64,000 nucleotides of DNA from Nannocystis bainbridge (GTDB lineage Bacteria > Myxococcota_A > Polyangia > Nannocystales > Nannocystaceae): the NCBI RefSeq assembly GCF_028368995.1, contig NZ_JAQNDL010000003.1:2240001-2304000 (forward strand), given 5' to 3'. Positions 1,635 to 64,000 of this stretch are shown here, piece after piece. The notes under the pieces were generated by a model that made no database searches, was not told the DNA's origin, and saw only the letters and a program-made list of their open reading frames with translations. A program made the translations under genes and the position numbers. Every line of letters starts with the position of its first letter. Position 1 is the stretch's first letter.

Positions 1635-2210
1635 ATGAGCACGCCGAGCAAGACCCCGATCCTCGCCGACAACGTCTTCACCGTCCGCGATTTCTGCACT
1701 CCTGACGAGTGCGCCGCCTGGCTCCGGCTCGCGCACGACGTCGGCTTCGCGGAGGCCCCGATCACCACCGCGCGCGGCTTCGTGATGGCCCCGGAGATCC
1801 GCAACAACACCCGGGTGATCCGCGACGACCTCGAGCTCGCGCATGGGCTGTGGCAGCGGCTGGCCCCGTTCGTGCCCGCGCGCCGCCACGGCTGGCAGGC
1901 CGTCGGCCTCAACGAGCGGCTCCGCTTCTACCGCTACGAGCCCGGCCAGTACTTCCGCTGGCACCACGACGGCGCCTTCCACCGCAGCCTCCACGAGCAG
2001 AGCCTCCTCACCGTCATGCTCTACCTCGACGCCGAGTTCACCGGCGGCAGCACCGAGTTCGAACACGCCGGCGAGGTCGTCCGCGTCGCCCCCGAGCGCG
2101 GCATGGTCCTCGTGTTCGACCACCCCCTCTGCCACCAGGGCGCCCCGGTGCGCAGCGGCGTCAAGCACGTCCTCCGCACCGACGTCATGTACCGCCGCGA
2201 CGATGCATGA
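1635..2210 (+). CDS. 2OG-Fe(II) oxygenase (prolyl 4-hydroxylase-like)
   Basis: MSTPSK start; RFYRYEPGQYFRWHHDG (HxD), TVMLYL, GGST.F, HQGAPV..G.K..LRTDVMY. Confidence 0.9.
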   Translation: MSTPSKTPILADNVFTVRDFCTPDECAAWLRLAHDVGFAEAPITTARGFVMAPEIRNNTRVIRDDLELAHGLWQRLAPFVPARRHGWQAVGLNERLRFYRYEPGQYFRWHHDGAFHRSLHEQSLLTVMLYLDAEFTGGSTEFEHAGEVVRVAPERGMVLVFDHPLCHQGAPVRSGVKHVLRTDVMYRRDDA

Positions 2211-2277
2211 CCCGAAGGACATGCCCAACAGGCCATGTCCAATACAACATGCCCTAAACGACATGTCCCCGAGTTCA
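2208..2277. repeat. Phased array of five 14-bp TGTC-N6-GACA-like units
   Basis: TGACCCGAAGGACA|TGCCCAACAGGCCA|TGTCCAATACAACA|TGCCCTAAACGACA|TGTCCCCGAGTTCA; begins at the upstream stop codon. Confidence 0.8.
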
Positions 2278-2446
2278 TCCCCCGGACCTCCGCCCATCGA
2301 ACAAACCGCCCGAGCCGTTCGCCCCGGCGGCTCTGTTTTCGAATCAACGCCGGACACGGATGCCTGCCCCTCGGCGAACATCGGCCCTGCTTCGATCGCT
2401 TCACCGCGCCCGCGGGCGAGCCTCGGCCGCGCCCGTCAGCGGAAGC

Positions 2447-4219
2447 TCACCGCGGTCGCTGGCGCGCGTCGGCGTCGAACAGCCGCTCGAGGTCCGCGCT
2501 GAACTTCTTCGCCGACGCGATCAGGGCCGCCTCGTCGTGGCGGATCGCGTACTGCTCGTTCAGCACCTGCTCGTCGTGCTCGCGGAACGTCTTCACGTAC
2601 TCGCGGGCGTCGCTCGGCGTCACCCCCAGCTCCTCGAGCGAGCGGTGCGCCGCGTCCAGGCTCGAAAGGAACATCTCGCGCACGATCACGTGGGCCCCGT
2701 GGGCCCTCAGGCGGAACGCGTGCGACCGGTTGCGCGCGCGGGCCACGATCCGCAGCTCCGGGAAGTTGCGGCGGACCGTCTCGACCGTGCGCATCGACGC
2801 CTCGACGTCGTCGATCGCCACCACGATGAGGCGCGCCTTGTCGGCCTTGGCCGCGCGCAGCAGGTCGATGCGGGCCGCGTCGCCGTAGTAGATCTCGTTG
2901 CCGAACCGGCGCAGGAAGTCCACCTGCGTCGTATCGATCTCGAGCGCCGTGAACGGGACCCGCGTCATTCGCAGCACTCGCCCGACGATCTGGCCGAAGC
3001 GGCCGAAGCCCGCGATGATGACCGGGTTCTCCTCGTCGATCGCGTCGAACTCGCGCCGGTTCTGGGCCGCGCGGCGCGCGGAGATCCGGTCGCGGGCGAT
3101 CAGCAGCAGCGGCGTCACCATCATCGACATCGTCACTGCCACCACCAGCAGATCGATCACCTCCGGCGCCACCAGCCCGGCCGGCCCCGCCACTCCGAAC
3201 AGCACGAACGCGAACTCGCCGCCCTGCGACAGCGCGATCGCCAGGCTCGAAGCTGACCCGAAGGACATCTTCGCCACCCGCCCGATCACCAGCAGCGCCA
3301 GCCCCTTGACCCCCACCAGCCCGAGCACGATCGCCAGCACCGCCAGCGGCTGCGCCGCGATGATCCCGAGGTCGGCCGACATCCCCACCGCCACGAAGAA
3401 CAGCCCGAGCAGCAGCCCCTTGAACGGCTCGATGTCGGCCTCGAGCTCGTGGCGGTACTCGCTGTCGGCCAGCAGCACCCCGGCGAGGAACGCCCCCAGC
3501 GCCGCCTCGAGGTGGACCAGCTCCATCAGCAGCGCCGTCCCGATCACCACCAGCAGCGCCCACGCCGACGACAGCTCGTTGCTGCGCGTCGAGAGCACCC
3601 AGCGGAACAGCGGCCGTAGCAGCATGCGCCCGCCCAGCACCAGCCCGGCGATCACCGCCGCCGCGATCGCCAGCGACATCCATGGCCCTTGCGTCGCGTC
3701 CGACCCCTCGCCGCTGCTCGTCAGCAGCGGAATCGCCGCCAGCACCGGGATCGCCGCCAGATCCTGGAACAGCAGGATCTTGAACGACGCCCGCCCGTGC
3801 GGCGCCGTCAGCTCGAGCCGCTCGCCCAGCACCTGCAGCACGAACGCCGTCGACGACAGCGACAGCGCGAACCCGACCACCAGCGCCCCGGCCGGCGGCA
3901 GCCCCAGCAGCCACCCCCCCAGCGCCAGCAGCAGCGACGTCACCATCACCTGCGCCGACCCGAGCCCGAACACCCCCGCCCGCATCTCCCACAGCCGCTT
4001 CGGCTGCAGCTCGAGCCCGATCACGAACAGCAGCAGCACCACCCCGAATTCCGCCACGTGGAGCGTGTCCTCGACGTGCTCCACCAGCCCCAGCCCGGAC
4101 GGCCCGATCGCCGCCCCTGCCGCCAGGTAGCCCAGCACCGAGCCGAGCCCGAGGCGCTTGAACAGCGGGACCACCACCACCGCGGCGGCCAGAAAAATCG
4201 CAGATTGAGCGAGCTGCAC
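2447..4219 (-). CDS. kefC: Glutathione-regulated K+ efflux antiporter KefB/KefC (CPA2 + TrkA-N)
   Basis: LGSVLGYL, LSLSSTAF, LLFQDLA, YRHELEADIEPFKGLLLGLFF, LSQGGEFAFV, IIAGFGRFGQ, YYGDA; GTG start at 4219; kefB vs kefC not resolvable. Confidence 0.92.
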   Translation of the reverse strand: MQLAQSAIFLAAAVVVVPLFKRLGLGSVLGYLAAGAAIGPSGLGLVEHVEDTLHVAEFGVVLLLFVIGLELQPKRLWEMRAGVFGLGSAQVMVTSLLLALGGWLLGLPPAGALVVGFALSLSSTAFVLQVLGERLELTAPHGRASFKILLFQDLAAIPVLAAIPLLTSSGEGSDATQGPWMSLAIAAAVIAGLVLGGRMLLRPLFRWVLSTRSNELSSAWALLVVIGTALLMELVHLEAALGAFLAGVLLADSEYRHELEADIEPFKGLLLGLFFVAVGMSADLGIIAAQPLAVLAIVLGLVGVKGLALLVIGRVAKMSFGSASSLAIALSQGGEFAFVLFGVAGPAGLVAPEVIDLLVVAVTMSMMVTPLLLIARDRISARRAAQNRREFDAIDEENPVIIAGFGRFGQIVGRVLRMTRVPFTALEIDTTQVDFLRRFGNEIYYGDAARIDLLRAAKADKARLIVVAIDDVEASMRTVETVRRNFPELRIVARARNRSHAFRLRAHGAHVIVREMFLSSLDAAHRSLEELGVTPSDAREYVKTFREHDEQVLNEQYAIRHDEAALIASAKKFSADLERLFDADARQRPR

Positions 4220-4484
4220 CGGCCCCGAACATACCCTGCGACGGGCCTCCGCTGACGCCCGCTTTTCGGCCGCACCGCCCGCCGACCCCGCCCCCGCGGT
4301 CACCCGCTCGAACGAAGCGCCCGGAGCTCTCCCCTCGGCCCTTTCGAATCTCTCGTCACCGGTCCCTCGCGAGCGAGTGACTCGCCCGACCTACCGCATC
4401 CCTCACTCGCGCGCGTCCGGAGCACCCCATGGCTCGAGCATCCTCCCCCGCGGCGACCCGTCAGCAAACGCGGCCATGCTTTCA

Positions 4485-4892
4485 CTACGAGTCGTGGTCG
4501 GTGCCCACGCACCCGCAGTCCCATCGACAGACCTCGTCCTTCTTGGGACCGCACTCTCCATCGATGTTCTCGACCAGATCGTGCAGGACCCAGTACTGGT
4601 CGCAGTTCTCGGCCTTGTTGCCGCAGGCAAAGAAGTCCAGCAAGGCGGGGGCGCACTCGGGAGCTTCCCACTTCGCCAGCCGGATCTCCTGAGCGCGCAC
4701 GCACGCGTCCACCCCCGCATAGTCCGGTCCGTAGTTACACTCGCTCAGCAGCTCGCAGCGCCTCCGGAGGATCTCATCCGCATCGCCCGTGGTCGATCCG
4801 GTGCTCGAGGTCCCCGAGTCCGTCTCCTGGCCGACAGGGCGATCGGTACAGGCAAGCAGGCAGGCGGCGAGCAACGGCAGAGTACGGAACAT
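4485..4892 (-). CDS. Small Cys-rich lipoprotein
   Basis: Lipobox LLAC, Ser/Thr linker, many Cys. Confidence 0.75.
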   Translation of the reverse strand: MFRTLPLLAACLLACTDRPVGQETDSGTSSTGSTTGDADEILRRRCELLSECNYGPDYAGVDACVRAQEIRLAKWEAPECAPALLDFFACGNKAENCDQYWVLHDLVENIDGECGPKKDEVCRWDCGCVGTDHDS

Positions 4893-4957
4893 GGGGGTCT
4901 CTTGCGAGGGTATGCGCGAGAGAATAGCACCACCGAAAGATCTGAACCTCCCGCTGC

Positions 4958-5062
4958 ATCGGCTCCGACTCAGAACCGGCCGCTCAGCACCAGCCCGCCG
5001 AGGCTCGGCGCCACGCGCACCAGCGCCTCCCGCGTCCGGCCCTCACCTCACGTGCACCGGTA
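4958..5062 (-). pseudogene. Diverged duplicate of the 3' end of gene 11040-11903 (direct repeat of 11028-11139)
   Basis: 4958-5021 matches 11028-11091 at 62/64 nt (VRVAPSLGGLVLSG[R/Q]F-stop plus downstream bases); similarity continues to 5062/11139 across a 7-nt deletion (GAGCTCC). Confidence 0.9.
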
Positions 5063-5063
5063 T

Positions 5064-5102
5064 CGACGCGACCGCCCTGCCGAGGTCCGGGCGGTCGCGT
5101 CG
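5064..5102. terminator. 14-bp-stem hairpin abutting the direct repeat
   Basis: CGACGCGACCGCCC-11 nt-GGGCGGTCGCGTCG perfect inverted repeat downstream of gene 5192-6157; no U-tract, so function uncertain. Confidence 0.45.
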
Positions 5103-5191
5103 GCGTCGAACGCTTCATGAGCGCGCTTCAAGCCGTTTCTGGTTCAGCACCAGTCGTCACGGGAGCAGCGCCTAATCCTATAGCAACACTC

Positions 5192-6157
5192 TCACTCGGA
5201 GATGAGAGGCTCGTATGAAATCGTAAGATAGTTCACACCCCGCAGGATGTATACGTCAAACATCGTCTCGCTCTCCCCCCACAGCTCGCTGAGCGCGGCC
5301 CACGCGTCTGCAGCCGTTTCGAGGGGCATTCCGTTGATGCCCAGCGGGATGTCGCCGTCTCGGAACCCGAGCAGGTAGAAGAGCTCGCCGCTGTTCGCAT
5401 TGTCGACCTGGAATCCGGGTCCGTTCACGACAGGTTCGAAGTATGCGTCGTCACATACGAGGAGTGGAGCCGGGTTGCTGATCAGGGCGGACAAAAATGA
5501 CCAATTGTAGTAGTATACACCACTAATCAAAGTGACATTATCGCTCGGATCCCAACCTGCGCAGTTGTAAGGAATCGGCCCGCCAGTCGGATCGCCAGTC
5601 GGATCGCCAGTCGGATCGCCGCCAGTCGTCGGATCACCGCCAGTCGTCGGCTCGGGCAGCACACCCGAACAGTCCAACCATCCGATGTTGGAGTCGATGG
5701 CTCCCCCATCAAAGCAAGCCGCGGCACAGTCGGTTTCGACCTTGTTGCTTGTATAGCTCAAGTCCTGGTTACACCAATCATTCCAAATGTCATCTGACCA
5801 TGACTCGTCCCATCCCTGACAATAGCAGGAGTACTCGATCCCGCCAGGACAATCCCAGCAGAAGGGATTTCCCAGGCTGGTGGCACCCGTGATGCTCGTG
5901 GTGGGGAGGGTGTCGGTGCCTGTCTCAGTGCCGGTGCCTGTCTCAGTGCCGCTCCCTGTCTCAGTGCCGCTCCCTGTCTCAGTGCCGGTGCCTGTCTCAG
6001 TGCCGCTCTCTGTCTCAGTGCCGCTCCCTGTCTCAGTGCCGCTCCCTGTGCTAGCGGTGTCGGTGGCGTTATCAGGCTCCTGCTTGCACTGGATGGATGT
6101 CGAAGCCAGGATAGCGACCACGTATGCACTCCGACCGTTCAAGCTCAAATTTTTCAT
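5192..6157 (-). CDS. Lipoprotein with GTETGS repeats, Cys-rich domain and C-terminal PDZ-like domain
   Basis: Signal ending SIQC; (GTETGS)n and (GDPT)n linkers; GFQV..ANSGELFYLLGFRDGDIPLGINGMPL resembles the GspC-type PDZ signature. Confidence 0.75.
   Translation of the reverse strand: MKNLSLNGRSAYVVAILASTSIQCKQEPDNATDTASTGSGTETGSGTETESGTETGTGTETGSGTETGSGTETGTGTETGTDTLPTTSITGATSLGNPFCWDCPGGIEYSCYCQGWDESWSDDIWNDWCNQDLSYTSNKVETDCAAACFDGGAIDSNIGWLDCSGVLPEPTTGGDPTTGGDPTGDPTGDPTGGPIPYNCAGWDPSDNVTLISGVYYYNWSFLSALISNPAPLLVCDDAYFEPVVNGPGFQVDNANSGELFYLLGFRDGDIPLGINGMPLETAADAWAALSELWGESETMFDVYILRGVNYLTISYEPLISE
5921..6046. repeat. Seven 18-bp coding tandem repeats
   Basis: (TGTCTCAGTGCCGCTCCC / TGTCTCAGTGCCGGTGCC)x7 encoding GTETGS/GTETGT on the minus strand. 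Confidence 0.95.
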
Positions 6158-6452
6158 GCCTACGAATCTCCTGGTTCAGACCCTAAGAGATCATTCGCGG
6201 CAAGTCAAGAAGGAAGACACCATTTGAGGGACGGCTTCCTCCAAACTGGGCAAACCAGGAAAAGGTATTAGTCCAGTGCAGAGACGAGACTTAGGGACGC
6301 AGCGTGGGTCGAGACCTTAGCGATAGCCTAGGGCCTATCCCAGATCGCAAAGTCCGACTTCGATACCACTGTGGCGCAGTCTACGACAAGGTACTCGGAG
6401 ACATGACTTGTACCTCCGCTCATCAATGTACTCGAGTCGCGGAGGGTCGTGC

Positions 6453-7571
6453 CTACGTCCCGGCCATTTTGGGATCCATCGCACTGGACGGATCGTCGAC
6501 GCGAAGAAGCTGAAAACCAATGATCGTCGACGCGTTGGCAGGTCCGTGGAGTCGGAGTGAGTAGCGCCCGGGGTCGAGCCAGCCAATTTGCGGGACATCT
6601 ATCGCTCCAGCGACGAGTTGGCGAAGCAGACATGGATTGTCGCAGGCGTACATCGAGACGATGTGCGTCATTCCAGAGGGGACATCATCCTCTTCTCCGA
6701 GAACGCGAAGTTCGTAGAGCCCCCCCTCCCCGATGTCGATCGTGTGGAGGACGAGGGTGCTGTCCCCCGCAAAAGGCCCGATAGCGTCCAGATCCTCGCA
6801 AGACAGAGTCCGCGTCATCTGTAGTGCCCGCCCGTCCCAGGCCAGCGTGGGGGCGTTGCACTCCATAAGCTTGGCGTCGTACGCCTCGTGGGCGCAAGAC
6901 GGCCCTGCTTCGAATTCCGCGATCGAATCGTCCAAGCTCGTGCCGAATTGCTGACGGAAACCGACATCGAGCTCTAACTCACCCGCGCCAGCGTCCAGAG
7001 ATGTATAGAGCCGCAGAAAAGCCTCGATGCCATGACGCGAGATGAGGAAGGCGGTGAATTTCCCTGCTAACGGGTAAAGATCGTACTCCACGAGTTCCGC
7101 ATTCGTCGCGGTGAGCGCTTCGCGAACATCGGCACTACTATCACCGACGTTGCTGTACGGTCGCCCATCGAGGCCCTGATAGACGACCGCCAAGCCCTCG
7201 GCAAAGAACACAGGAGGGCTACCGAGCGCGAAAGTCAGATTGTGCACGAGCTCATGATTATGCGGCGCGGTGCGCGAAAACGTCTCATTACCTCGCGCGC
7301 ATCCTACCAGTCGCGCGCCACACTCGGAGCGGTCAGTAAAGTCTTGGGAATCGAGCCAATAGAAGAGAATGCGTTCTTCCCCAACTGGCGCGGAGATCGA
7401 GAACTCATTCGAGACACGTTCGACGAATTCGTCCATGAACGCCAGTGAGCCTCCGCAGAGCGGCTGACCGGTAGCGGCGTCGACGACGACATGTTTCCCT
7501 TCAAGGGATGCGTCGCCCAGCGGACGGCAAGCCGCCCACAAGAAGACGGCACATTGAAAATACCGCTTCAT
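6453..7571 (-). CDS. Lipoprotein with gluzincin-like metallopeptidase motif
   Basis: Lipobox WAAC; HELVH followed by FFAEGLA (HExxH..E); 4-nt overlap with the upstream FG-GAP gene. Confidence 0.75.
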   Translation of the reverse strand: MKRYFQCAVFLWAACRPLGDASLEGKHVVVDAATGQPLCGGSLAFMDEFVERVSNEFSISAPVGEERILFYWLDSQDFTDRSECGARLVGCARGNETFSRTAPHNHELVHNLTFALGSPPVFFAEGLAVVYQGLDGRPYSNVGDSSADVREALTATNAELVEYDLYPLAGKFTAFLISRHGIEAFLRLYTSLDAGAGELELDVGFRQQFGTSLDDSIAEFEAGPSCAHEAYDAKLMECNAPTLAWDGRALQMTRTLSCEDLDAIGPFAGDSTLVLHTIDIGEGGLYELRVLGEEDDVPSGMTHIVSMYACDNPCLLRQLVAGAIDVPQIGWLDPGRYSLRLHGPANASTIIGFQLLRVDDPSSAMDPKMAGT

Positions 7572-10500
7572 GGGACCTGCTTCATGACCGTCACGCCCAC
7601 GTCATCGGTGAGGATGATGTCAAAGTTCGCGTCCCCGTCGACATCGGCGAGGTGGATCGCCTGGACAAATCGCGAAGGTAGGATGTACTCCGAGAACTGG
7701 GGCATTGCGCTCGCCATATGACGCCCTACGAGCAGGGCCACGATTGGTCCAGAAAGTCTCCCTGGGCCGGTCGTGGCGAGCAGTTCGGGCTGGCCGTCAG
7801 CGTCCAAGTCAGCGATTGCAACATTCGACACGTCCGCGAGTAGCGGCCCGGACTCCTCGGCTCCGCGCAGGACCGAGAGGGTCTGTTGGCGCAGCAGGAC
7901 GAGTTCAGTCAAACCGTCGGCGTCCAGGTCGGCGGGTAGGAGGTCGTCGGCGAGCACCGGGCTATAAACTTCAACCGGCTCGAAAACGCCGCGCCCTCGT
8001 CCCCGTAACCAGAGCACTCCCGCCGCGCTCGCACCGACGAGATCGATCTGGCCATCTCCGTCGAGATCATAAAATCGCGGACGTGCGACCGGCGCCGGCG
8101 CAGCGAGGAGGGTCGTGCGCGGAGGCTCGACGCCGCCTTCCGCGAGACCCAAAAACACATGAACTTCGGACTCCGGATTCGTGGATAACGCTGCAAGATC
8201 GACCACTCCGTCATCGTCGAGGTCGTGCGAGTACAACTGAATGCCGCTAGCCGGCAGCGACGCGAGGTGCTGAGCATTGGCCACACCTTCTGCGAAGGTG
8301 ACGATATATATCTGCGAGCCCGGCGCCTCATCGGTCGCAACGATGATGGCTTCGTCGGCTTCGCCGCTCGACTCGACGAGGACGACGTCCGAGATCGGCA
8401 CTTCCGCGAGCGAGCCGGTGACGATCGGCTGATGAAGAGGTCCGAAGCTACCGCGCCCGTCCGCGAGCGCCAGCGACAGCTTTGCACCAATACCGACGAG
8501 GTCCGCGGCCCCGTCACCGTCGACGTCGCCGACACGAAACCGACGCGGAGTGTCGATCGCCACGACATTCGCCGCCACGAGCGCGGGCCCTAAGACGACA
8601 CGACGCGCCTCCGTCGGGCGCTCCTTCTGGATGATCACGAGGTCGGATATCCCATCATCGTCCATCTGGGCGAAGGAGAACGACGAGGCATAACCCACGC
8701 TATGGCTGCCAAGCGCCGTCCAACCCTGGTCCCCCTGCAGCCAGGGCGTGAGCAAGCTACGGACTTGCACGGGCTGAATGGCCACGTCAGTGCGCCCCAC
8801 GACGTCGAAGAAGCCGTCTGCATCGAGGTCATCCAAGTGCAGACCACTGCACGCGATATCACTCAGAATTTCGAAGTCCGCGGGCTCTTGCTCCAGGACG
8901 TTCCGGAAGGCGCGCAAGCCCTGCGGGCCGCAAGTAACGACGTCAAGATCCCCGTCACCTTCGAGGTCGGCGTAGGCCGCGGCTTGAATACTATGACCCT
9001 CGGCGAACGCGAGCTCGCGTGGCGGCGCAGTCACGTCTTGAAGGTAATGAACCCGACCTTCCCCGTCGCTTATCATCAGGTCGGCCCGCAGGTCGCCCGC
9101 GCCCGCGACAGCATCTAGTGATATCGCGTCGAAGCCGAGTGGGACCTCCCCCCCGAGTTGCAACGCGCCATTGGGATCGGAGGCGAACCAGTACAACTGG
9201 CTGGCGGTCTCTCGTTCGGCGAGAACTAGGAGGTCGAGACGACCATCGCCGTCGCCGTCTCCAAGCGCGACGTCGGTGATCCTCTCGCCGACAGTCATCG
9301 GTGGCCCGGGGCTGTACAGGTCGACGCCATCGCGTTGCAGCACGGCCACTTGCCGTCTGTCCCAGACAACGATCTCGCGCGAGGCATCTCCCGTCACCTC
9401 GCCGGCGTCAACGGACCAGACCGCTGCGAGACCCGTATCGAGCTCGACCGGCAAACCCGGCCCGCCACGCCACAGCTTGAGCGGTCCCGCCAGCTTCTCG
9501 CTGAGAATGAGCTCATCAATGCCGTCATCATCGAGGTCGACCGCCCATCCCCGCGTCATCGCCGGCCCCTGCCACAAGGTCGTGAGTTGCAGGCCGGTCC
9601 CTGGTTCGAGCCGCCCGATGCGGTTGTTCATCGCGCTCGCGTAGTGCAGAAAACCGCCCGCCCCAGACACGATGGCGCTCGCCCACGAAGTCGTCGCACC
9701 AGCAAGCGTCTCCCCGTTCAAGGGATCGAGCCGTTGCACTGTCGAGGTCGCCACGGACAGGACTCCCAGCGCGGGCGGACCGCCCTCGGAGTTCACGACC
9801 ACCAGGTCGCTTGCTTGCGGGATGCAAGCCCACGTCTCCTGCGCGCGCAAATTTCCCTTGTTGTCACCGTGGAAGACACTAACCGCTTCCTCGAACTCGC
9901 TCAATGAGGCGAGATCGAGCGCACCATCCACGTCGAAATCGGCAACAACAACGGCTTGCGGGGCCCCCTCGACCAAGTGTCGAGGCCCGAGCGAGAGCCG
10001 GCCGTGGCCATCATTGAGGAGCAACTGCAACGCGTCGGCCTCGGGAAGCGCGACCACCAGATCGACGTCGTCGTCACCGTCGAGGTCACCGGTCGCCAAG
10101 CCGCTCGGACCAGGCCCGACCGCGACGTGCGTCACGTCCGTGAGGCCCCGCAGGATGCTGATGCTGCCGTCGCCAACATTGCCTGTGACAAGTTCCGGCG
10201 GGCCCGCGGCGTCGAGATTCGCTGCTACGATCGAGCGAGGCGCGGCACCGACTGCGTGGTGCTGCAGTTTCGGAAAAGAGCGTCCACCTCCACCAAGGTG
10301 AACACCGATTTTGTCTTCTGCCGGCAGCGCGGTGGCTAGATCGAGATACCCATCGTCATTGAAGTCTGCGACCACTACGCCCGAGATCTGACTCGCCACG
10401 GGCAAGAGAGTCGTCTCTGCGCCCATTTCGGTGTCTGAGCCCCATAGAACGCTAAATGTACCGGGCTCATGGTTCGCGGCTATCAAATCGCCGGCACCAT

Positions 10501-10684
10501 CACCATCGAGATCGGCGTATACGAGCGTGCGCGGCCCAAAGGCGACAGCGAAACGAGAAACCTCCAAGCACAAGGACCCGTTCGAGATACCAGGACACGA
10601 CTCGGTGCGTGCGCAAGCAACAAGGATCGAAACCGAAAGTACGAGGGCACAGAGTTTAGGAGAGAGCCGGAGATGTTGCATCAT
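7568..10684 (-). CDS. FG-GAP/VCBS repeat lipoprotein (beta-propeller adhesin-like)
   Basis: Lipobox LVAC; many DxDGDGxxDL repeats; ATG at 10684. Confidence 0.88.
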   Translation of the reverse strand: MMQHLRLSPKLCALVLSVSILVACARTESCPGISNGSLCLEVSRFAVAFGPRTLVYADLDGDGAGDLIAANHEPGTFSVLWGSDTEMGAETTLLPVASQISGVVVADFNDDGYLDLATALPAEDKIGVHLGGGGRSFPKLQHHAVGAAPRSIVAANLDAAGPPELVTGNVGDGSISILRGLTDVTHVAVGPGPSGLATGDLDGDDDVDLVVALPEADALQLLLNDGHGRLSLGPRHLVEGAPQAVVVADFDVDGALDLASLSEFEEAVSVFHGDNKGNLRAQETWACIPQASDLVVVNSEGGPPALGVLSVATSTVQRLDPLNGETLAGATTSWASAIVSGAGGFLHYASAMNNRIGRLEPGTGLQLTTLWQGPAMTRGWAVDLDDDGIDELILSEKLAGPLKLWRGGPGLPVELDTGLAAVWSVDAGEVTGDASREIVVWDRRQVAVLQRDGVDLYSPGPPMTVGERITDVALGDGDGDGRLDLLVLAERETASQLYWFASDPNGALQLGGEVPLGFDAISLDAVAGAGDLRADLMISDGEGRVHYLQDVTAPPRELAFAEGHSIQAAAYADLEGDGDLDVVTCGPQGLRAFRNVLEQEPADFEILSDIACSGLHLDDLDADGFFDVVGRTDVAIQPVQVRSLLTPWLQGDQGWTALGSHSVGYASSFSFAQMDDDGISDLVIIQKERPTEARRVVLGPALVAANVVAIDTPRRFRVGDVDGDGAADLVGIGAKLSLALADGRGSFGPLHQPIVTGSLAEVPISDVVLVESSGEADEAIIVATDEAPGSQIYIVTFAEGVANAQHLASLPASGIQLYSHDLDDDGVVDLAALSTNPESEVHVFLGLAEGGVEPPRTTLLAAPAPVARPRFYDLDGDGQIDLVGASAAGVLWLRGRGRGVFEPVEVYSPVLADDLLPADLDADGLTELVLLRQQTLSVLRGAEESGPLLADVSNVAIADLDADGQPELLATTGPGRLSGPIVALLVGRHMASAMPQFSEYILPSRFVQAIHLADVDGDANFDIILTDDVGVTVMKQVP

Positions 10685-11039
10685 AGGCTTCCTCGACGCG
10701 AAGGATGCGAAAAGCCTACCACGCTTGAAATGGAGAAGACATGGCAGCGACAGGGGCTCTTGTACCGTGACGCAGCACACGCCTCGGCGTGGCAGCCCGA
10801 CGCTCTTGCTCAATCCTGACGAACTGCAGATCGCGCAGTCGCCGGCGGCGGGGTTCGCACGCAGTCGAGCGGTTGCGACGTTGCGGGCTCCGAATCAACT
10901 GTCAGGGAAAATCTGAGACCATGAACCCTTAACACTCAGTTCGCGCCGCTCATCTTAATGGCGCGATACCGTGGTGCCGCAACTTCACACATGCGAGCGC
11001 GATTCCGTGCTCGTGGTGGTAACCTCGATCGGCTCCGAC

Positions 11040-13234: not shown

Positions 13235-13340
13235 TGTCTCTCGGGACAGGACGCTCGCCCCGCAGCGCCGCGGGCGCATGTCCCAAACAACATGCCCTCA
13301 AGGACAGCAACGACCTCACCGCAACCTGTCCCGAAGACCA
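13235..13340. repeat. Cluster of TGTC-N6-GACA-like units
   Basis: TGTCTCTCGGGACA 13235; TGTCCCAAACAACA|TGCCCTCAAGGACA 13279-13306; TGTCCCGAAGACCA 13327. Confidence 0.75.
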
Positions 13341-15335: not shown

Positions 15336-15377
15336 TGTTTCAAAGGACATGTCCCCCTGGACATGTCCTTCAAATAT
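15336..15377. repeat. Phased 14-bp TGTC-N6-GACA array (3 units)
   Basis: TGTTTCAAAGGACA|TGTCCCCCTGGACA|TGTCCTTCAAATAT. Confidence 0.8.
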
Positions 15378-16995: not shown

Positions 16996-17131
16996 TGTCT
17001 CGACAAACATGTCCTCTTAGACATGTCCAAGAGGACACACGAAAATCACCGCGACCGGCCGGCCGAACAGCCCCGACCACCCGGCAGAGCTCGACCTCTG
17101 CCATGTCCCTTCGGACATGCTTTTTAGAGCA
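16996..17131. repeat. Two phased TGTC-N6-GACA arrays
   Basis: TGTCTCGACAAACA|TGTCCTCTTAGACA|TGTCCAAGAGGACA (16996-17037); TGTCCCTTCGGACA|TGCTTTTTAGAGCA (17104-17131). Confidence 0.85.
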
Positions 17132-20027: not shown

Positions 20028-20066
20028 TGACATGTCCCGAAGGACATATCATCAATCACCGCCGCC

Positions 20067-22171: not shown

Positions 22172-22187
22172 GCGCTCGAGCATGAAT

Positions 22188-43838: not shown

Positions 43839-45479
<1,641 letters not shown>

Positions 45480-51548: not shown

Positions 51549-51549
51549 G

Positions 51550-53958: not shown

Positions 53959-55368
53959 GTGATACAGTCCGCGGCGATGCTCGGATCGCTCCGCACCGCC
54001 CTCGTCCGCGCCACCGATCGCGCCGCCATTCGTATGACCGGCGGGGTGCGGCGGCCGGGCGAGCCGCCGATCGTGCGCGCGCGGCTGCCCTTCCTCGGCC
54101 ACGCGCTGGCGATGGGGCGCGACCTCACCGCCCTCCTGCGCGCGTGTCAGCGCCAGCACGGCGATGTCTTCACCCTGCTGGTCGCGGGTCAGCGCATGCA
54201 CTTCGTGCTCGACCCGCTGAGCTTCCCGCTGGTGCTCAAGGCGCAGGACAACCTGACCTTCCACGAGATCGGCCAGGAGATCGGCACACGCGCGTTCGGC
54301 TACACCTCGCCGCCGCCCGGCCGCGATTACGACGAGCTCGAGAGCTACTACGGCGAGCACCTCAAGAACGCCGCGCTCGGCCCGCTGACCGCGCGCATGG
54401 AGGAGCGGCTGCGGATCGCCTTCGACCGCTTCACCGGCGACGACTGGCGCGAGGAGGGGCTGTTCGACTTCAGCGCCCGGGTGATCTTCGCCGCCGGCAT
54501 GGAGACCCTTTACGGCGAGGGCATCGCCGACGACGCCGCCGTCCGCGACTTCCAGCGCATCGACAAGTGGTTCCCGCTGCTGGCTGCCGGCGCGCCCGCG
54601 GCCGCGTTCCCCGGCCTCCTGCGCGCGCGTGGACGGCTGCTCGTGCGCGTCGATCGCATGCGCCCCGACGCCAGCCCCTTCATCCGCGCCCGCGACCTCT
54701 TGTTGGGAAAGATCACCACCCCGCGCAATCGCCGGCACCTGCAGGCCGCGATGGTCTGGGCCTCGCAGGCCAACACCTTGCCGGCGGCATTCTGGGCTCT
54801 GGCCCATCTGCTCACCGATCCGCCCGGCCGCGCCGCCGTGGTCGCCGAGGTCGAGCAGCGCGGCTTCTCCGACCTCAAGCGCCTGCCCCAATTGTTCAGC
54901 AGCATCTGCGAGACGCTGCGGCTGTGCAGCGAATCCTTGACGATCCGGCTGGTCCACCGCGACTGCGAGCTGACTCTGGCCGACGGCAGCAGCATCACCC
55001 TGCGCGCCGGCGACCGGGTCGCGCTGTGCCCGCAAGTGGCCCACCGCGATCCGGAGATCTTCGCCGACCCGGAGCGCTTCCAATTCGACCGTTTCCTGTC
55101 CGACACCGGCGGCCCGCGGCAATTTTTGAAGGGTGGCCAGCGTGTACCGATCCCCCTGATGCCCTACGGCGGCGGCGTCAGCATGTGTCCTGGCCGCTTC
55201 CTCGCCAACAACGAGGTCATGCAATTCGCCGGGCTCGCGCTCACGCAACTCGACATCGAGCTGCTCGAGCAGGAGTTGCCCCCGGTCGACAAGACCCGCG
55301 CCGGCCTCGGCGTGCTGTCCCCGACCCGCGATGTGCGCTGCCGGATCCGCCGCCGCCCGCGCGCCTGA
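53959..55368 (+). CDS. Cytochrome P450 resembling eukaryotic CYP7/CYP8 clan
   Basis: RRPGEPP, WASQANTLPAAFW (I-helix), ETLR, DPEIFADPERFQFDRF, MPYGGGVSMCPGRF, RAGLGVL.P; start could be 53977. Confidence 0.9.
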   Translation: MIQSAAMLGSLRTALVRATDRAAIRMTGGVRRPGEPPIVRARLPFLGHALAMGRDLTALLRACQRQHGDVFTLLVAGQRMHFVLDPLSFPLVLKAQDNLTFHEIGQEIGTRAFGYTSPPPGRDYDELESYYGEHLKNAALGPLTARMEERLRIAFDRFTGDDWREEGLFDFSARVIFAAGMETLYGEGIADDAAVRDFQRIDKWFPLLAAGAPAAAFPGLLRARGRLLVRVDRMRPDASPFIRARDLLLGKITTPRNRRHLQAAMVWASQANTLPAAFWALAHLLTDPPGRAAVVAEVEQRGFSDLKRLPQLFSSICETLRLCSESLTIRLVHRDCELTLADGSSITLRAGDRVALCPQVAHRDPEIFADPERFQFDRFLSDTGGPRQFLKGGQRVPIPLMPYGGGVSMCPGRFLANNEVMQFAGLALTQLDIELLEQELPPVDKTRAGLGVLSPTRDVRCRIRRRPRA

Positions 55369-55571
55369 TCCTCATTTCTTGACCTCGATGGTTCGCGGCT
55401 TCATTTCTGCTGGCACGACCCGACCCGAGTTTTTTAAATCTGTCCTCAAGGACATCTCATGACAATCGCGCCGACTGAACGTCAGCGACCCTGACCGGGG
55501 CGAGGGGTTATTCGCCGGGCCAGGGTCTCGACAGGACTTTCAAGGCGGACGCTCTCGATCTGCCACGGCGA

Positions 55572-56695: not shown

Positions 56696-58141
56696 TCACC
56701 CGCCGCCGGGCGCGCCCGCGGCGGCCTTGCCCGCACCTGTCTTTGCGGACATCTGACTGCGCAGGTCGAGCAGCGCCGTGCGCAGGCCCTCCTCTACCAC
56801 CGGGTGGTAGAACGGCAGGCGCAGCGCCTGCTCGACCGTCAGCGAGCTCTGGATCGCCCACGCCAGCAGGTGCGCCAGGTGTTCGCCGGCGGGCCCCGCC
56901 AATTCGGCCCCGAGCAGCGCCCCGGTCGCGTCCGAGCCGTACACGCGCAGCAGCCCGTGGTTCTTGCCCATCACCCGCGCGCGGCCCTGGTCGCCGAAGT
57001 CGACCTGGCCGATCGAGCAGGTCGCCAGGTCGAGCGAATTGAACCGGCGGCCGACGAACGCCACCTGCGGGTCGGTGAACACGATCCCGAGCGGCGTGCG
57101 GCGCTCGCCCGGCAGCACCGTCGGGAACGACGCCGCGTTGCGCCCGGCGATCTGGCCGTCGTCGATCGCCTCGTGCAGCAGCGGGTGCAGCCCGGTCGCG
57201 TCGCCGGCCAGGAACACCGGCGCCTCGCCGCACTGCAGCGTGGTCGCGTCGAGCTCGCGCGGCCGGCCCTTGTCGTCGAGCTCGACGCCCGCGCGCTCCA
57301 GCTCGAGCCCTTTCAGCCGCGGCTCGCGGCCGGTCGCCGCCAGCACCATCGGCCATGTCCCTTCGGACACCTCGCCGTCCTCGCCGCGAAACCTGACCCA
57401 CACCCCGTCGACCCGCGCCTCGGCCGCCTCGAGCTTCGAGCGGGTGTGCAGCGTCATCTCGCGCGCCAGCCCGGACTTGGCCGCCGCCAGCACCGCCGGG
57501 TCGCGGATGCCGGCCACCTTGCCGTCGGCGCAAATCACCGTCACGCGCGCCCCGAGCCGCGCCAGCGCCTGCCCGAGCTCGACCCCGATCGGCCCCGCGC
57601 CGACCACCAGCAGGCGCTCGGGGATCGCCTCGAGCTCGAACACCTGGTCCGAGTCGATCACCCGCGGCGACTCCAGCTTCGCCAGCAGCGGCGGCACCTT
57701 CACCACCGACCCCGTCGCCACCACCACCGCCTTGCGCGCCTTGACCCGCAGGTCATCGCCGACCGCGAGCTCGTTCGTCGCCACGAAGCGGGCTCGACCG
57801 TCGATGAGCAGCCCGTTCGCGGCGAGCCGACGGACCTCCTTCAACTGATACTCGACGAAGCGGTCGCGCTCGCGGCGGACGCGGCCCATCACCTCGCCGG
57901 GGACCACGCGCGGCTCGCCCGCGTGCACGCCGAAGCGCTTGGCCTCGCGGACCGCGTGCGCCGCCTCGCCGGCCGCGATCAGCAGCTTCGAGGGCATGCA
58001 GCCGACCCGCGCGCACAGGGTCCCGAGCGGCCCCGGATCGATCGCCACCGCCTGCGCCCCCGCCTTCTCCGCCGCTCGCCGGGCGTTGAGCCCCGCCGTC
58101 CCCACGCCGATCACCGCGACATCGACCGTCTGCTCGCGCAT
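56696..58141 (-). CDS. Pyridine nucleotide-disulfide oxidoreductase (dihydrolipoyl dehydrogenase-like)
   Basis: GVGTAG, CARVGCMPSK, GAGPIGVE, FTDPQ, FYHPVVEEG. Confidence 0.92.
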   Translation of the reverse strand: MREQTVDVAVIGVGTAGLNARRAAEKAGAQAVAIDPGPLGTLCARVGCMPSKLLIAAGEAAHAVREAKRFGVHAGEPRVVPGEVMGRVRRERDRFVEYQLKEVRRLAANGLLIDGRARFVATNELAVGDDLRVKARKAVVVATGSVVKVPPLLAKLESPRVIDSDQVFELEAIPERLLVVGAGPIGVELGQALARLGARVTVICADGKVAGIRDPAVLAAAKSGLAREMTLHTRSKLEAAEARVDGVWVRFRGEDGEVSEGTWPMVLAATGREPRLKGLELERAGVELDDKGRPRELDATTLQCGEAPVFLAGDATGLHPLLHEAIDDGQIAGRNAASFPTVLPGERRTPLGIVFTDPQVAFVGRRFNSLDLATCSIGQVDFGDQGRARVMGKNHGLLRVYGSDATGALLGAELAGPAGEHLAHLLAWAIQSSLTVEQALRLPFYHPVVEEGLRTALLDLRSQMSAKTGAGKAAAGAPGGG

Positions 58142-58199: not shown

Positions 58200-59006
58200 T
58201 CAGCCCGGATGCACCCCGCGTCCGCCGGCGCGCCTGACCTTTTCGACCTGTGTCTTCGGACCTGTCTCTTGGATCATGTCGCTCAGCGGACACGCGCCGA
58301 GCCTGGCCAGGTCGGCCGCGGCCGCCTCGGCCCAGCCGCTGTTGGCGAGCGGCGACGCCGGGCTCGGATGAAGGATCTTGCCGATCTTGGCCCGCGCGCC
58401 GACGACCTTCTGCGCCCGCTTCTCGGCCCACGCGCCGATGCCGACGACCCATGTCGGCTCGAGCAGCTCGACCAGGCGCAGCAGGTGGCGGTCGCACGCG
58501 GCCTCGAGCGGCGCGCGCTCGCCCGCGGGCAGCTTGTCGGGCGTGAAGTTCTTGCCGCTCGCCTCGATGAAGGTCAGCGGGCAGTAATTGGCGACGTAAT
58601 GGCGGTTGAAGAACCGCTCCGCGGCGCCCCATCGCTGGGCCACCGCGCCCCACAGGCGCGAGCCGCTGACCTCCGCGCGCGTGCACGCGAACCCTTGCAC
58701 CGGCCGCTCCGGGTGCTCGTGAGCGGGCCGCGACACCGGCGCCTCGATCTTCAAGAAGTCGCGCACCGCCTTGACCTCGCCGAACGGCACCCCCGTCTGC
58801 GTCATCCCGAACGGCCCCGGGTTCATGCCGAGGAACACGATGTCCTTGCGCCCGCGCCCGTACGCGGCGATGTACGCGGCGTGAGGCGCCCACGCGTAGT
58901 CGAGCGGGTGATACACGTGGGTGATCGGCTCGGCGAACGAGAGGCTGCGCACCTCGTCCGCGAGCCTTCTGGCTGCGGCCTGCAGCTCGGCGGCGATCGT
59001 CGTCAT
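58200..59006 (-). CDS. SMUG1-type (family 3) uracil-DNA glycosylase
   Basis: GMNPGPFGMTQTGVPFGEV, EVSG.RLW, NYCPL, LHPSPASP. Confidence 0.92.
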   Translation of the reverse strand: MTTIAAELQAAARRLADEVRSLSFAEPITHVYHPLDYAWAPHAAYIAAYGRGRKDIVFLGMNPGPFGMTQTGVPFGEVKAVRDFLKIEAPVSRPAHEHPERPVQGFACTRAEVSGSRLWGAVAQRWGAAERFFNRHYVANYCPLTFIEASGKNFTPDKLPAGERAPLEAACDRHLLRLVELLEPTWVVGIGAWAEKRAQKVVGARAKIGKILHPSPASPLANSGWAEAAAADLARLGACPLSDMIQETGPKTQVEKVRRAGGRGVHPG

Positions 59007-62162: not shown

Positions 62163-62239
62163 GCGATTCCGCGCGAAAATAACCTCACGCGCGTTAGTTT
62201 TTATACTTTTATTGTAAGTTTTGTCGTATTCTCGACGGC

Positions 62240-63229
62240 ATGGCTTCGACGCTTTGCCGCCGAGTCTTCTGCTTCACCCTCGCCTGCGCCTGCGGTCCCC
62301 AACCCGCCGACGAGACCACCGGCACCACCGATACGCCCGGCACCACCGATACGCCGGGCCTCACCACCGGCACGACGAGCACCACCGGCGACACCACCCT
62401 CGTCGAGACAACCTCGACGGTCACCGGCAATCCCACCACCGCGCATCCCACCACCACGAGTCCCACGCTCACGACGGACAGCGACGATTCGGGCGTGACC
62501 GGCGGCGACTTCGTCATCACCCCGGACGGCGGCGGCAGCATTTGTGACGATGCGGTACGCCTCTCGCAATGCGATCCGTGGAACCAGAATTGCCCCCGCG
62601 GTGAGAAGTGCTCGCCCTCGAACCGCGGCTGCGACGAGCTCGAGATGAACCGCTGCGACGAGCTCCCGCGCCAGCCCGTCCCGGTCGGCGGCGCCTGCAC
62701 CTCCGAGAATCATCCGCTCAGCGGCCGAAACGACTGTGACATCGGCGCCACCTGCTGGTTCGTCGATCCCGCAAGCCTGACCGGGACCTGCGTCAGCCTG
62801 TGCCACGGCTCGCCCGAAGCCCCCGACTGCACCCACGTGCCTGGCACCACCTGCGTGTTCGTCCACGACAACGATTACGCCCCGCTGTGCCTGCCGACCT
62901 GCGATCCGCTCGAGAAGACCTGTCCCGCAGGACATCATTGTCACCCGACCCCGCACGCCCCCGAGGCGTTCGCCTGCATCCCCGACACCTCGGCGCCGGT
63001 CGGCGCGGCCTTCGAACCGTGCAGCACTACCAACTGCGCCCCCGGCCTGCTCTGCGCCGAGCCCGAAGCCGCCGCCGTCGAATGTGCCCCCGACACCAAT
63101 TGCTGCACCCCCCTGTGCGACCTCGACGCCCCCGCCTGCCCCGGCGCCGGCCAGTCCTGCCTGCCCTACTACGAGATCGGCCAGGCCCCCGCCGGCCTCG
63201 AGAACGTCGGCCGCTGCGCCCTGCCGTGA
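62240..63229 (+). CDS. Thr-rich, Cys-rich lipoprotein
   Basis: Lipobox ACAC; CDPWNQNCPRGEKC, CLPTCDPL, CCTPLCDL. Confidence 0.85.
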   Translation: MASTLCRRVFCFTLACACGPQPADETTGTTDTPGTTDTPGLTTGTTSTTGDTTLVETTSTVTGNPTTAHPTTTSPTLTTDSDDSGVTGGDFVITPDGGGSICDDAVRLSQCDPWNQNCPRGEKCSPSNRGCDELEMNRCDELPRQPVPVGGACTSENHPLSGRNDCDIGATCWFVDPASLTGTCVSLCHGSPEAPDCTHVPGTTCVFVHDNDYAPLCLPTCDPLEKTCPAGHHCHPTPHAPEAFACIPDTSAPVGAAFEPCSTTNCAPGLLCAEPEAAAVECAPDTNCCTPLCDLDAPACPGAGQSCLPYYEIGQAPAGLENVGRCALP

Positions 63230-63454
63230 TTCGCCCACCCATGATTCAGGCTCGCCGGCGCGAATGCCCACATCCCCGCGAGCCCACGCTACCGAGCTCC
63301 GGGCTCTCGGTCCCCACCGTCGGCGGGGCCCTCGACCTCCTCCCGCAATGAAGGGCCGCGCCCCGGCGCGCAGGTCCGCGCGTCCGGGTGGTGCGCAGGT
63401 TTTTCCGCACCGCGCGAAGTTGACTGCCGCCGGCCGCTGACCGACGATCGGTGG

Positions 63455-64000
63455 GTGCATGGCCTGCTCCGCCTCGTCCCCTGTCTCGCCCTGACCGCGT
63501 GCATCGAGCGCGCGCCTGCCTCGGAAGACAGCGACAGCGGCGGCTCGACCACGTCCCCCGTCAGCACCACCGCCGCAACCGACGACTCGGCCTCCGGCGG
63601 CACCGACGACTCGGCCTCCGGCGGCACCGACGACGCGGCCACCGACGGCGTGTCGGGCGCGCACGCGGGCCCCTGCAAGCCGATCGAGGGCAACGACTGT
63701 CCCACGGGACATGTCTGCTGTTCCGACGATCCGGCGACCGTTCAGGGCCTCCTCCCCAATTATTTTAAAATGGGCGTGGTCGACGACCAGATCGGCACCC
63801 CATTGTTCTCCGACGCCAACAACGACCGCAGCTACTGGGGTTATTGCATCGACACGAGCGAGTTCGTCAGCCCGCTCGGGAACGGCTGCCCGGTCCCGTG
63901 CAATCCGACCTGGACGTCGGAGCAGAACTCGACGATCTGCGGCGGCTCCCGGTGCTGCCCGTTCACCGCCGTCGACCCGGCCAAGGACTGCGTCGTCGAC
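63455..64000 (+). CDS. Cys-rich lipoprotein (runs off window end)
   Basis: Hand translation from GTG at 63455: VHGLLRLVPCLALTACIER, (TDDSASGG)x2, DCPTGHVCCSDDP, GCPVPCNPTW; open to 64000. Confidence 0.8.
   Translation, partial: MHGLLRLVPCLALTACIERAPASEDSDSGGSTTSPVSTTAATDDSASGGTDDSASGGTDDAATDGVSGAHAGPCKPIEGNDCPTGHVCCSDDPATVQGLLPNYFKMGVVDDQIGTPLFSDANNDRSYWGYCIDTSEFVSPLGNGCPVPCNPTWTSEQNSTICGGSRCCPFTAVDPAKDCVVD

Follow-up and report, generated by a model that had tools for sequence, protein, structure and literature searches.

The window analyzed here is a stretch of 64,000 nucleotides from Nannocystis bainbridge (positions 2,240,001 to 2,304,000 of contig NZ_JAQNDL010000003.1; G000:C2:2240001-2304000 in our numbering), part of an 11.05-Mb genome in five contigs with ~71.5% GC, and its most conspicuous feature is a short gapped palindrome, TGTC-N6-GACA, which recurs behind, between and inside its genes, both singly and in arrays with a 14-bp period (Table 1). 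A prior sequence-only reading of this DNA had listed 27 exact copies and had estimated that chance should supply less than one in 64 kb. All 27 were recovered, as against a mean of 0.62 in 100 dinucleotide-preserving shuffles (standard deviation 0.75, maximum 3), none of which reached 27. Allowing up to one mismatch, the window holds 73 matches (27 exact and 46 others) versus 19.8±4.2 in shuffles. Among the near-copies that had also been proposed, those at 2208/2236/2250, 3254, 20878, 51685, 53919 and 56409 lie within one mismatch, whereas those at 40548, 40742, 58235-58290 and 60635 lie beyond this threshold and are more degenerate relatives of the motif.

Gene contexts in this work rest on a crude caller that scores codon usage and GC content at third codon positions (GC3), by which the genome has 8186 genes and is 84.6% coding. 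By these calls, 13 of the 27 exact units in the window follow a stop codon, 10 lie in called open reading frames (ORFs) and four in called divergent regions (13235, 17010, 17024 and 17104). One gene with units within its coding sequence (CDS), 33798-36764(+), encodes a 988-aa membrane protein with a weak match to the spermine/spermidine-synthase domain (residues 658-747) and carries four exact units; two of these, along with a near-unit, lie in a Ser/Pro-rich linker (34440-34515) that has units in every species compared although its own sequence evolves fast. Two further genes adjoining units, coding respectively for a hybrid PAS histidine kinase with a receiver domain (17361-20027(+)) and a family-2 terpene synthase (36992-38002(-)), have no apparent functional link to the motif.

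Table 1. Units of the TGTC-N6-GACA motif in the window, with their gene contexts and the state of the orthologous positions in relatives (G001, G005, G007 and G010 are genomes of relatives)
Position	Units	Gene context	In relatives
2208-2277	degenerate phased array; 1-mismatch units 2208, 2236, 2250	convergent with gene 2447-4180(-); unit 2208 overlaps TGA stop of called gene 1488-2210(+)	
11259-11272	exact	weakly scored ORF 11040-11903(-), at edge of probable low-GC insertion	kept with other spacer in G005
13235-13306	exact 13235; 1-mismatch 13279, 13293		1-5 units in orthologous gaps
15336-15363	two phased (1-mismatch, exact)	from 5 nt past stop of 13478-15331(+)	exact unit 15350 kept in G005, G007 with other spacer
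16996-17037	three head-to-tail (one 1-mismatch, two exact), GACATGTC junctions	called divergent region, 15778-16923(-) / 17361-20027(+); exception to gene-end rule	
17104-17117	lone exact, CATGTCC...GGACATG flavor	same intergenic region as 16996-17037 array	
20033-20046	exact	6 nt past stop of 17361-20027(+); fills 39-bp convergent gap	half-sites kept in G005, G001, G007; spacers differ
22192-22233	three head-to-tail (two exact, one 1-mismatch)	21 nt past stop of 21734-22171(+)	
25859-25971	cluster: exact 25898; 1-mismatch 25859, 25944, 25958	after stop of 24530-25831(+)	orthologous gap of G007 is 22 bp, without unit
29197-29224	two phased (exact, 1-mismatch)	downstream of 29322-29708(-)	orthologous gaps of 4 relatives without unit
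34459-34514	exact 34459, 34487; 1-mismatch 34501	in CDS 33798-36764(+); peptides ...GHVP.. / ..DMS..	
34768-34781	exact	in CDS 33798-36764(+)	unit also in G001
36499-36512	exact	in CDS 33798-36764(+)	identical in all 4 relatives
36776-36974	five exact and one near-unit, GCTGTCC...GGACAGC flavor, ~38 bp apart	convergent region between 33798-36764(+) and terpene-synthase gene 36992-38002(-)	0, 2, 2, 3 units in G007, G005, G010, G001
41694-41721	two phased (1-mismatch, exact)	fill 33-bp convergent gap 40845-41696(+) / 41730-42926(-)	
44312-44325	exact	in CDS 43839-45479(+)	kept in all 4 relatives
55441-55454	exact	convergent region after 53977-55368(+)	orthologous gaps of 4 relatives without unit
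56738-56751	exact	near 3' end of CDS 56696-58141(-)	kept in 3 of 4 relatives
57356-57369	exact	in CDS 56696-58141(-)	identical in all 4 relatives
62921-62934	exact	in ORF of uncertain strand	half-sites kept in 3 of 4 relatives; spacers differ in two
63698-63711	exact	overlaps ATG of ORF 62201-63712(-); context uncertain	

Abundance, anatomy and phasing of the unit

Across the whole genome the gapped word TGTC-Nk-GACA occurs 3663 times at k=6 (~3,700 exact copies per 11-Mb genome), as opposed to 29-175 times at every other k between 0 and 19; the word with k=20, which equals the footprint of two abutting units, occurs 984 times. With up to one mismatch there are 11,671 units with N6 versus 1,937 with N5 and 3,127 with N7, or ~9,000 above background. 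The excess extends into called CDS, which hold 1351 copies at k=6 as against 50.8±7.5 in 10 codon shuffles, a 27-fold excess, while other values of k stay close to expectation (for k=5, 42 vs 16). The sequence-only reading had named the lack of a k=6-specific enrichment over shuffled controls as a result that would tell against it; as the excess over shuffles is found at k=6 only, the claim has come through this trial. The same k=6 peak, along with the same 14-bp phasing of CATG described below, is seen in 1.2 Mb of G005 and 0.4 Mb of G001.

Alignment of all 3663 copies yields the consensus (A/G)C(A/C)-TGTCC-N4-GGACA-(T/G)G(T/C), so that the unit is a 14-bp gapped palindrome, TG[T/c]CC-N4-GG[A/g]CA, with the centers of its half-sites 10 bp apart, i.e. 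one helical turn. Weak flank preferences stretch this core to about 20 bp, and two flank flavors, CATGTCC..GGACATG and GCTGTCC..GGACAGC, can be distinguished. Abutting units join at CATG, which in arrays repeats every 14 bp: CATG-N10-CATG occurs 3736 times genome-wide (median 136 at other spacings), with harmonics at 28, 42 and 56 bp (2073, 1584 and 742), and the gaps between successive exact units peak at the same values (144 at 14 bp, 88 at 28, 61 at 42 and 36 at 56). In-phase CATG chains comprise 1265 of length two, 328 of three, 213 of four, 159 of five, 75 of six, 22 of seven, two of eight, and one each of nine and twelve. Within the window, the head-to-tail stacking at a 14-bp period that had been described from the letters, with GACATGTC junctions and unlike spacers in neighboring units, is present at 15336-15363, 16996-17037, 22192-22233, 29197-29224 and 41694-41721. 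The self-sufficient entity is the unit and not the junction: 1357 of the 3663 units are preceded by no CA and also followed by no TG, and only 264 of 2237 GACATGTC junctions are without an in-phase partner half-site (up to one mismatch). Furthermore, the lone half-site TGTCC is not enriched (1.16x), as against 30x for GACATGTC, enrichment being found only in the paired or CATG context. Units inside chains decay to TG[T/c]CC....GG[A/g]CA, with TG and CA retained.

Some neighboring units in chains are identical and therefore point to recent tandem duplication. In the arrays at G000:C3:1085842 and C4:434664, 3-8 adjacent 14-bp units are identical or nearly so (e.g. TG[T/C]CCCTGAGGTCA x8), which we take as evidence that expansion by tandem duplication may precede the divergence of spacers. 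The central dinucleotide of the spacer is biased toward CG (633), TC/GA (547/442) and TT/AA (365/318) versus GC (96) and AC/GT (49/36), a bias that would fit a shape preference at the dyad of a putative bound dimer. Two degenerate arrays of the window, at 51685-51740 and 58235-58290, differ from the rest in having CCTG as the junction instead of CATG and spacers that are all TTCG-like, and may be a sub-family or decayed copies.

Placement relative to genes and the hairpin alternative

The 3663 exact units divide into 2266 in intergenic DNA, 1351 (37%) in CDS and 46 straddling the two, and their density falls from 3.23 per kb in convergent intergenic regions through 1.2-1.3 in tandem and 0.45 in divergent regions to 0.145 in CDS, intergenic density as a whole being 9-fold above that of CDS. 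In tandem regions, 833 sites lie closer to the upstream stop and 313 closer to the downstream start. An exact unit is found within 100 nt past the stop in 1461 of 7696 genes and within 300 nt in 1901, with a sharp peak from +2 to +30, and the profile upstream of start codons is flat. Counting units with up to one mismatch, 64% of the 1300 convergent regions have at least one (70-76% of those of 60-300 bp; N7 control 5%), as do 34% of the 3672 tandem regions (11% of those shorter than 60 bp) and 6% of the 309 divergent regions that measure 60-150 bp (control 4%). Arrays of at least five CATG follow suit, with 164 in convergent regions, 79 in tandem regions, 4 in divergent regions, 3 in CDS and 10 straddling. 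The element is thus above all a gene-end element, which roughly one in five to one in four genes has behind it. Convergent ends, regions upstream of genes and CDS had all been named as locations of the motif, and all three do occur; the impression of a general spread gives way to a strong bias toward gene 3' ends. That it does not look like an ordinary regulon holds well, in view of the flat profile before starts and the near-control occupancy of divergent regions.

The copies within CDS are in genuine coding sequence, as the local GC3 around them is 0.90 (0.936 in control windows) and 7% lie in windows with GC3 below 0.75. They favor two of the three reading frames (689, 557 and 105), and their neighborhoods are somewhat Ser/Pro-rich, in part because the motif itself encodes Ser and Pro.

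A palindrome directly behind stop codons invites comparison with RNA signals, and one alternative, which we consider unlikely, is that the unit acts as a stem-loop just past the stop (a 5-8-bp stem with a 4-nt loop), serving either as a bidirectional terminator without a U-tract or as a signal for 3'-end protection or processing, perhaps one read by an RNA-binding protein or RNase. Such a signal would suit the positions from +2 to +30 and the convergent gaps, where a palindrome yields the same stem whichever strand is transcribed. The folding energy is -7 to -9.5 kcal/mol for single units (z -2.8 to -4.2) and -125.7 kcal/mol (z -8.4) for the 227 nt of the array at 36765-36991. Canonical hairpin-plus-T-run terminators, moreover, are not enriched at window positions 20001-40000 (8 vs 5.2±2.9 in shuffles), so that another termination signal may be needed. 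The pattern of variation between the arms speaks against a stem, however. Compensatory double changes are not enriched at any stem pair: at pair 3/12, where T/A is found 1987 times, C/A 381, T/G 314 and C/G 146 times, independence predicts ~86 of the C/G pairs and base composition supplies ~59 more TGCCC-N4-GGGCA, while A/T (25) and G/C (78) match independence. The flank pairs are likewise uncoupled, with mutual information of 0.043, 0.015 and 0.005 bits at -1/14, -2/15 and -3/16 respectively. In 2792 degenerate in-phase units CATG is kept and complementarity is not, the latter amounting to 2.003 pairs as against 2.008±0.018 with shuffled partners. With tandem regions oriented by transcription, single variants compatible with G.U pairing number 249 versus 216 of their C.A mirrors, which is not significant (p=0.14); a slight excess at pair 3/12 (97 vs 63) favors RNA, and pair 5/10 shows the reverse (100 vs 115). 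There is no orientation bias of the loop relative to transcription (CGAG 65 vs CTCG 63, CGAA 60 vs TTCG 51), no T-run follows the units, and no Rfam family matches anywhere in the window at its gathering score; with neither compensation nor a T-run, the units differ from intrinsic terminators, which combine a compensated stem with a U-tract. An RNA signal also sits poorly with 1351 conserved copies inside CDS, and the modest folding energy of single units speaks for duplex reading. The preference expressed in the sequence-only reading for recognition of half-sites over an RNA hairpin is therefore borne out, inasmuch as the arms lack compensatory changes and are no more complementary than the consensus makes them.

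Phylogenetic range, conservation and turnover

All 10 other genomes of the genus contain the extended 18-mer CATGTCC-N4-GGACATG (2-266 copies), as do two of eight from other genera of the family (5 and 2 copies); 12 genomes that represent other families of the class have none. We then counted TGTCC-N4-GGACA in 59 genomes of the order with a completeness of at least 80%. It has 333-2090 copies in Nannocystis (10 of 10 genomes), 87-169 in one sister genus (g2, 4 of 4) and 67-295 in another (g4, 5 of 5); a fourth genus (g22) has 5-20 copies, all other genera have 0-11 and reversed-pattern controls 0-10, so that the 40 genomes outside the three motif genera have 0-20 copies. Among 80 loci listed from public genomes for a 22-mer pattern, 66 belong to Nannocystis, 7 to Nannocystaceae, 2 to Myxococcales and 5 to other taxa. 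The motif is hence restricted to Nannocystis apart from two sister genera, which have 10-20x fewer copies; at the 16 loci inspected in these, the units are single, and several follow a stop codon directly.

Synteny with the window is retained in four relatives, whose aligned blocks are 74-94% identical (85-94% in most), and this allows individual sites to be followed. At 11259, 15350, 20033 and 62921 the half-sites are kept across species with a changed spacer. We compared the present genome with G005 more widely, using units ascertained in either genome and counting sites exact in both twice. In CDS units (n=149 observations), identity reaches 95.8% over the eight core positions, 85.6% over the spacer and 82.8% over the distal flanks, as opposed to 87.1% for the core and 89.5% for the distal flanks of CDS pseudo-sites with other spacers (n=34). 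In the intergenic units (n=15) the core likewise ranks highest, with 94.2% as against 63.3% for the spacer and 67.4% for the distal flanks, and one-way ascertainment gives the same picture. These comparisons suggest that the half-sites are kept by selection, also inside CDS. The sequence aligned with the unit at 34768 has four differences among the 14 positions in G010 and in G007 and five in G005; two amino acids are altered (Ala>Ser and Ala>Thr).

The number of units, in turn, changes readily: copy number turns over between species at orthologous loci. The convergent gap after 33798-36764 has 0, 2, 2, 3 and 5+1 units in five species, although the flanking genes are ~90% identical. Orthologous regions with units in both genomes agree in number in just 6 of the 21 convergent cases and 8 of the 19 tandem ones. 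A 460-kb stretch has 87 intergenic units; the DNA around 60 of these cannot be aligned to G005, and that around 72 cannot be aligned to G001. Possession of a unit as such is shared more than expected, since orthologous tandem regions with a unit in both genomes number 19 versus 5.6 expected in one comparison and 15 versus 3.6 in the other.

In light of this turnover we weighed whether the element is a selfish mini-repeat akin to repetitive extragenic palindromes (REPs), spread or homogenized by a trans-acting enzyme or by tandem duplication with gene conversion, which accumulates at gene ends because it is harmless there and has at most an incidental cellular role. We regard this as unlikely. 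It would readily account for the unequal counts, the unalignable intergenic surroundings and the runs of identical units that mark recent tandem duplication, as well as for a clade-limited range with a large expansion in one genus; the distribution also resembles that given for REPs in passages of a published account (PMC3733652). Against this, the transposase linked to REPs, RAYT (REP-associated tyrosine transposase; Y1_Tnp, PF01797), has no match in the present genome or in any of 11 genomes of the genus, by a search that matched 6 of 14 control genomes, and the flank consensus, (G)ACA / TGT(C), lacks the GTAG or CGTC tag. Three copies of an IS110-family element (~1.4 kb, at least 99.6% identical) are present at G000:C1:556343, C2:2315553 (~11.5 kb past the window end) and C3:876687; as none of the three is inserted in a unit, the unit was rejected as their target site. 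Further, the unit, at 14 bp and with a free spacer, is undersized for a conventional mobile element, its core is conserved well above spacer and flanks even in CDS when pseudo-sites are not, and the unit at 34768 is set apart from its counterparts in three relatives by 4-5 substitutions and not by an insertion.

Conservation inside genes, on the other hand, suits a self-mark of the kind represented by HIP1 or by uptake sequences, in which the motif would be favored in all native DNA by some recognition system (uptake, recombination, repair bias, defense or an orphan methyltransferase), with clustering at gene ends being secondary. The 27-fold excess in CDS at k=6 alone, the motif-specific conservation there and the point changes opposite the 34768 unit would all be expected of such a mark, as would a clade-specific motif. 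Its density also rises 12-fold, from 0.21 to 2.60 per 5 kb, between genomic windows below 64% GC and those of at least 74% GC, although compositional expectation falls over this range. In keeping with a mark of native DNA is a ~7.5-kb stretch at 4236-11787 (GC 0.62-0.66 vs ~0.71), which has a single unit, at its edge; it stands where the four syntenic relatives have 1.0-2.9 kb and is therefore probably a recent insertion. HIP1, too, is described as a conserved, hyper-abundant palindrome tied to methylases (PMC4390886, PMC5861425, PMC13756078). We nevertheless deem a self-mark improbable: the 9-fold intergenic density and the extreme convergent-over-divergent bias are unlike an even mark, which moreover has no need of 14-bp arrays, the half-site by itself is not enriched, and the D12-class methylase gene, the one such partner tested, is present regardless of the motif.

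A proposed dimeric protein, and known systems compared with the element

Taking the anatomy, placement and conservation together, our preferred reading, held tentatively, is that the unit is a duplex-DNA site of a clade-specific, dimeric, putative protein, which would contact half-sites 10 bp apart, become multimerized on the 14-bp arrays and act at transcription-unit boundaries. We infer the protein, its cooperative binding and the boundary function from the form and distribution of its presumptive sites. A dimer with sequence specificity would read the unit as duplex DNA, and head-to-tail arrays, joined at CATG every 14 bp, could accommodate rows of further dimers. Since units stand directly after stops and occupy most of the convergent gaps, they would most likely serve to punctuate transcription units: they could halt or insulate RNA polymerase, or else deal with supercoils at the sites of transcription end, along the lines proposed for REPs and bacterial interspersed mosaic elements (BIMEs). 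The arrays would expand by tandem duplication and turn over in copy number between species, with the half-sites held by selection or by a sequence-specific drive. The alternatives set out above are not mutually exclusive with this proposal or with one another.

Several observations weigh against the dimeric-protein reading. Independent decay of the two arms would also be expected of a repeat that is merely copied and has no function, and an RNA hairpin read in a sequence-specific manner would likewise be free of compensatory change; the tilt toward G.U-compatible variants overall and at pair 3/12, reversed at pair 5/10, leans in the same direction. The higher conservation of core over flank is seen also in an intergenic control (n=8), at 92% vs 80%, both samples being small. 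A boundary or roadblock role leaves the 1351 CDS copies and their conservation unexplained, and a few arrays do lie in called divergent regions, such as that at 16996-17117 in the window. Finally, the genes nearest the motif offer no candidate for the protein. Ten genes with units on both sides encode ALK_LTK_GRD, thioredoxin-like or ABC-2 domains or have no match, with no DNA-binding or transposase domain among them, and the ten genes beside the rare divergent-region arrays, whose products have acetyltransferase, NUDIX, GFA, LCM, DUF808, cupin or Ldh_2 domains or none, include no DNA-binding candidate. The abundant chromosome-organizing protein invoked by the sequence-only reading has no candidate among the 20 motif-neighboring genes examined, and no uptake system was identified by an analysis that did not extend to competence.

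A more specific version of the proposal, which we put forward as rather unlikely in its full extent, is that a dedicated, predicted protein polymerizes on the 14-bp-phased TGTCC-N4-GGACA arrays behind stop codons in Nannocystis and its sister genera, forming a genome-wide boundary (a roadblock terminator or supercoil insulator) that would replace the hairpin-plus-U-tract terminators scarce in a 71% GC genome, with the same protein-motif pair also kept, less densely, inside genes.

Of the known systems, REPs and BIMEs come closest. REPs are described, in passages of PMC3733652, as 20-40-bp elements with a GTAG or CGTC tag at one end that are often linked to RAYTs, and the roles proposed for them there are in supercoiling, termination and mRNA stability. 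Like the REP/BIME elements of Enterobacteria and Pseudomonas (including REPINs), the Nannocystis element is short, palindromic, high-copy and lineage-specific; it occupies gene 3' ends and convergent gaps and is nearly absent from promoter-only regions; and it occurs singly or in tandem clusters whose copy number differs between relatives. Unlike them, it has a 14-bp, tagless core and a free spacer, its units abut strictly at 14 bp, 37% of its exact copies lie conserved in CDS, and Y1_Tnp is found in 0 of 11 genomes. It is therefore a REP/BIME-like gene-end repeat in anatomy and distribution that departs from REPs in tag, RAYT and length, and the earlier setting aside of REP families is not supported, since placement at gene ends and turnover of copy number put it closest to repeats of the REP/BIME type.

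The nearest structural analogue is dRS3 of Neisseria (ATTCCC-N8-GGGAAT), which forms arrays known as Neisseria intergenic mosaic elements (NIMEs), and which is treated in portions of PMC1797815 as follows: its units are separated by 50-150-bp RS elements, its authors proposed that they are binding sites of a recombinase, and they serve as phage integration sites via a phage recombinase. Both have inverted half-sites around a variable core and intergenic arrays of varying repeat number, with dRS3 present in hundreds of copies according to the same portions. In contrast to dRS3, the Nannocystis units abut directly, none of three IS110-family copies lies in a unit, and the element follows stop codons genome-wide. 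Spacers of ~20 bp are seen only at 36776-36974, where they resemble each other (..gccgacct..gcgcgg) and the period is ~38 bp, not 14; this array is a hairpin-plus-linker module that has been duplicated in tandem, and it resembles BIMEs or NIMEs more than the abutting arrays do.

HIP1 of cyanobacteria (GCGATCGC) is a contiguous octamer recognized by two methylases. It shares with the present motif hyper-abundance, a palindromic form, over-representation in CDS, conservation between genomes and clade specificity (PMC4390886, PMC5861425, PMC13756078). The Nannocystis motif differs in being gapped, biased to gene ends and arrayed, and the one methylase tested does not track it. DNA uptake sequences and uptake signal sequences (DUS/USS) are clade-specific and present in thousands of copies, in CDS and as inverted pairs after genes; unlike them, the single Nannocystis half-site is not enriched (TGTCC, 1.16x), and a fixed N4 separates the 5-mers. 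A last comparison is with the TGT-N8-ACA operators of dimeric helix-turn-helix proteins, such as those of PadR (ATGT-N8-ACAT) and LexA (CTGT-N8-ACAG). These too have half-sites one helical turn apart, and the two flavors, cATGTcc..ggACATg and gCTGTcc..ggACAGc, fit their scheme; the Nannocystis sites differ in numbering thousands and in lying downstream of genes rather than in promoters, and none of these regulators could be linked to them.

Several other candidates were rejected. The period is too short, and the spacers too alike, for CRISPR; the res-site of resolvases, for all its TGTC start, has the wrong geometry; targets of Type I restriction-modification systems are avoided in genomes and not enriched; and cruciform extrusion is at odds with the absence of the motif where negative supercoils build up. 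The sequence-only reading had found no described element to match the motif, and we likewise found no description of it in the open-access literature, a search to which subscription journals and supplements were external. In the portion of PMC5658511 that deals with them, Nannocystis repeats are mentioned only as large repetitive regions that hinder assembly.

The motif is itself a likely source of assembly and annotation artefacts, and it bears more broadly on how very GC-rich bacteria without classical terminators mark the ends of transcription units and on the role of REP-like repeats where RAYTs are absent. It is unusual in combining strict 14-bp phasing, independent half-sites and selection inside CDS with the lack of a RAYT, and it provides a good entry point to a putative DNA-protein system; as the unit, its phasing, gene-end placement, clade range and half-site selection are now defined, these questions are directly testable. 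In genomes rich in natural products, the motif can also serve as a practical marker of native versus recently acquired DNA. The 4236-11787 stretch discussed above contains the minus-strand gene of a 1081-aa FG-GAP-repeat protein (7568-10813), along with two ORFs without a Pfam match.

Methylase genes co-occurring with the motif had also been named at the outset as something to look for. The D12-class gene, the sole one found in this genome and a weak match to a Dam-family NCBIfam model, was rejected as a partner: all 59 genomes of the order have homologues, be the motif present or not, so that the gene does not track the motif. The N6_N4_Mtase model has 12 matches in the genome, corresponding to ~9 genes. 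The best of these DNA-methyltransferase matches (193 bits) lies at G000:C2:2306632-2307279, ~2.6 kb past the end of the window.

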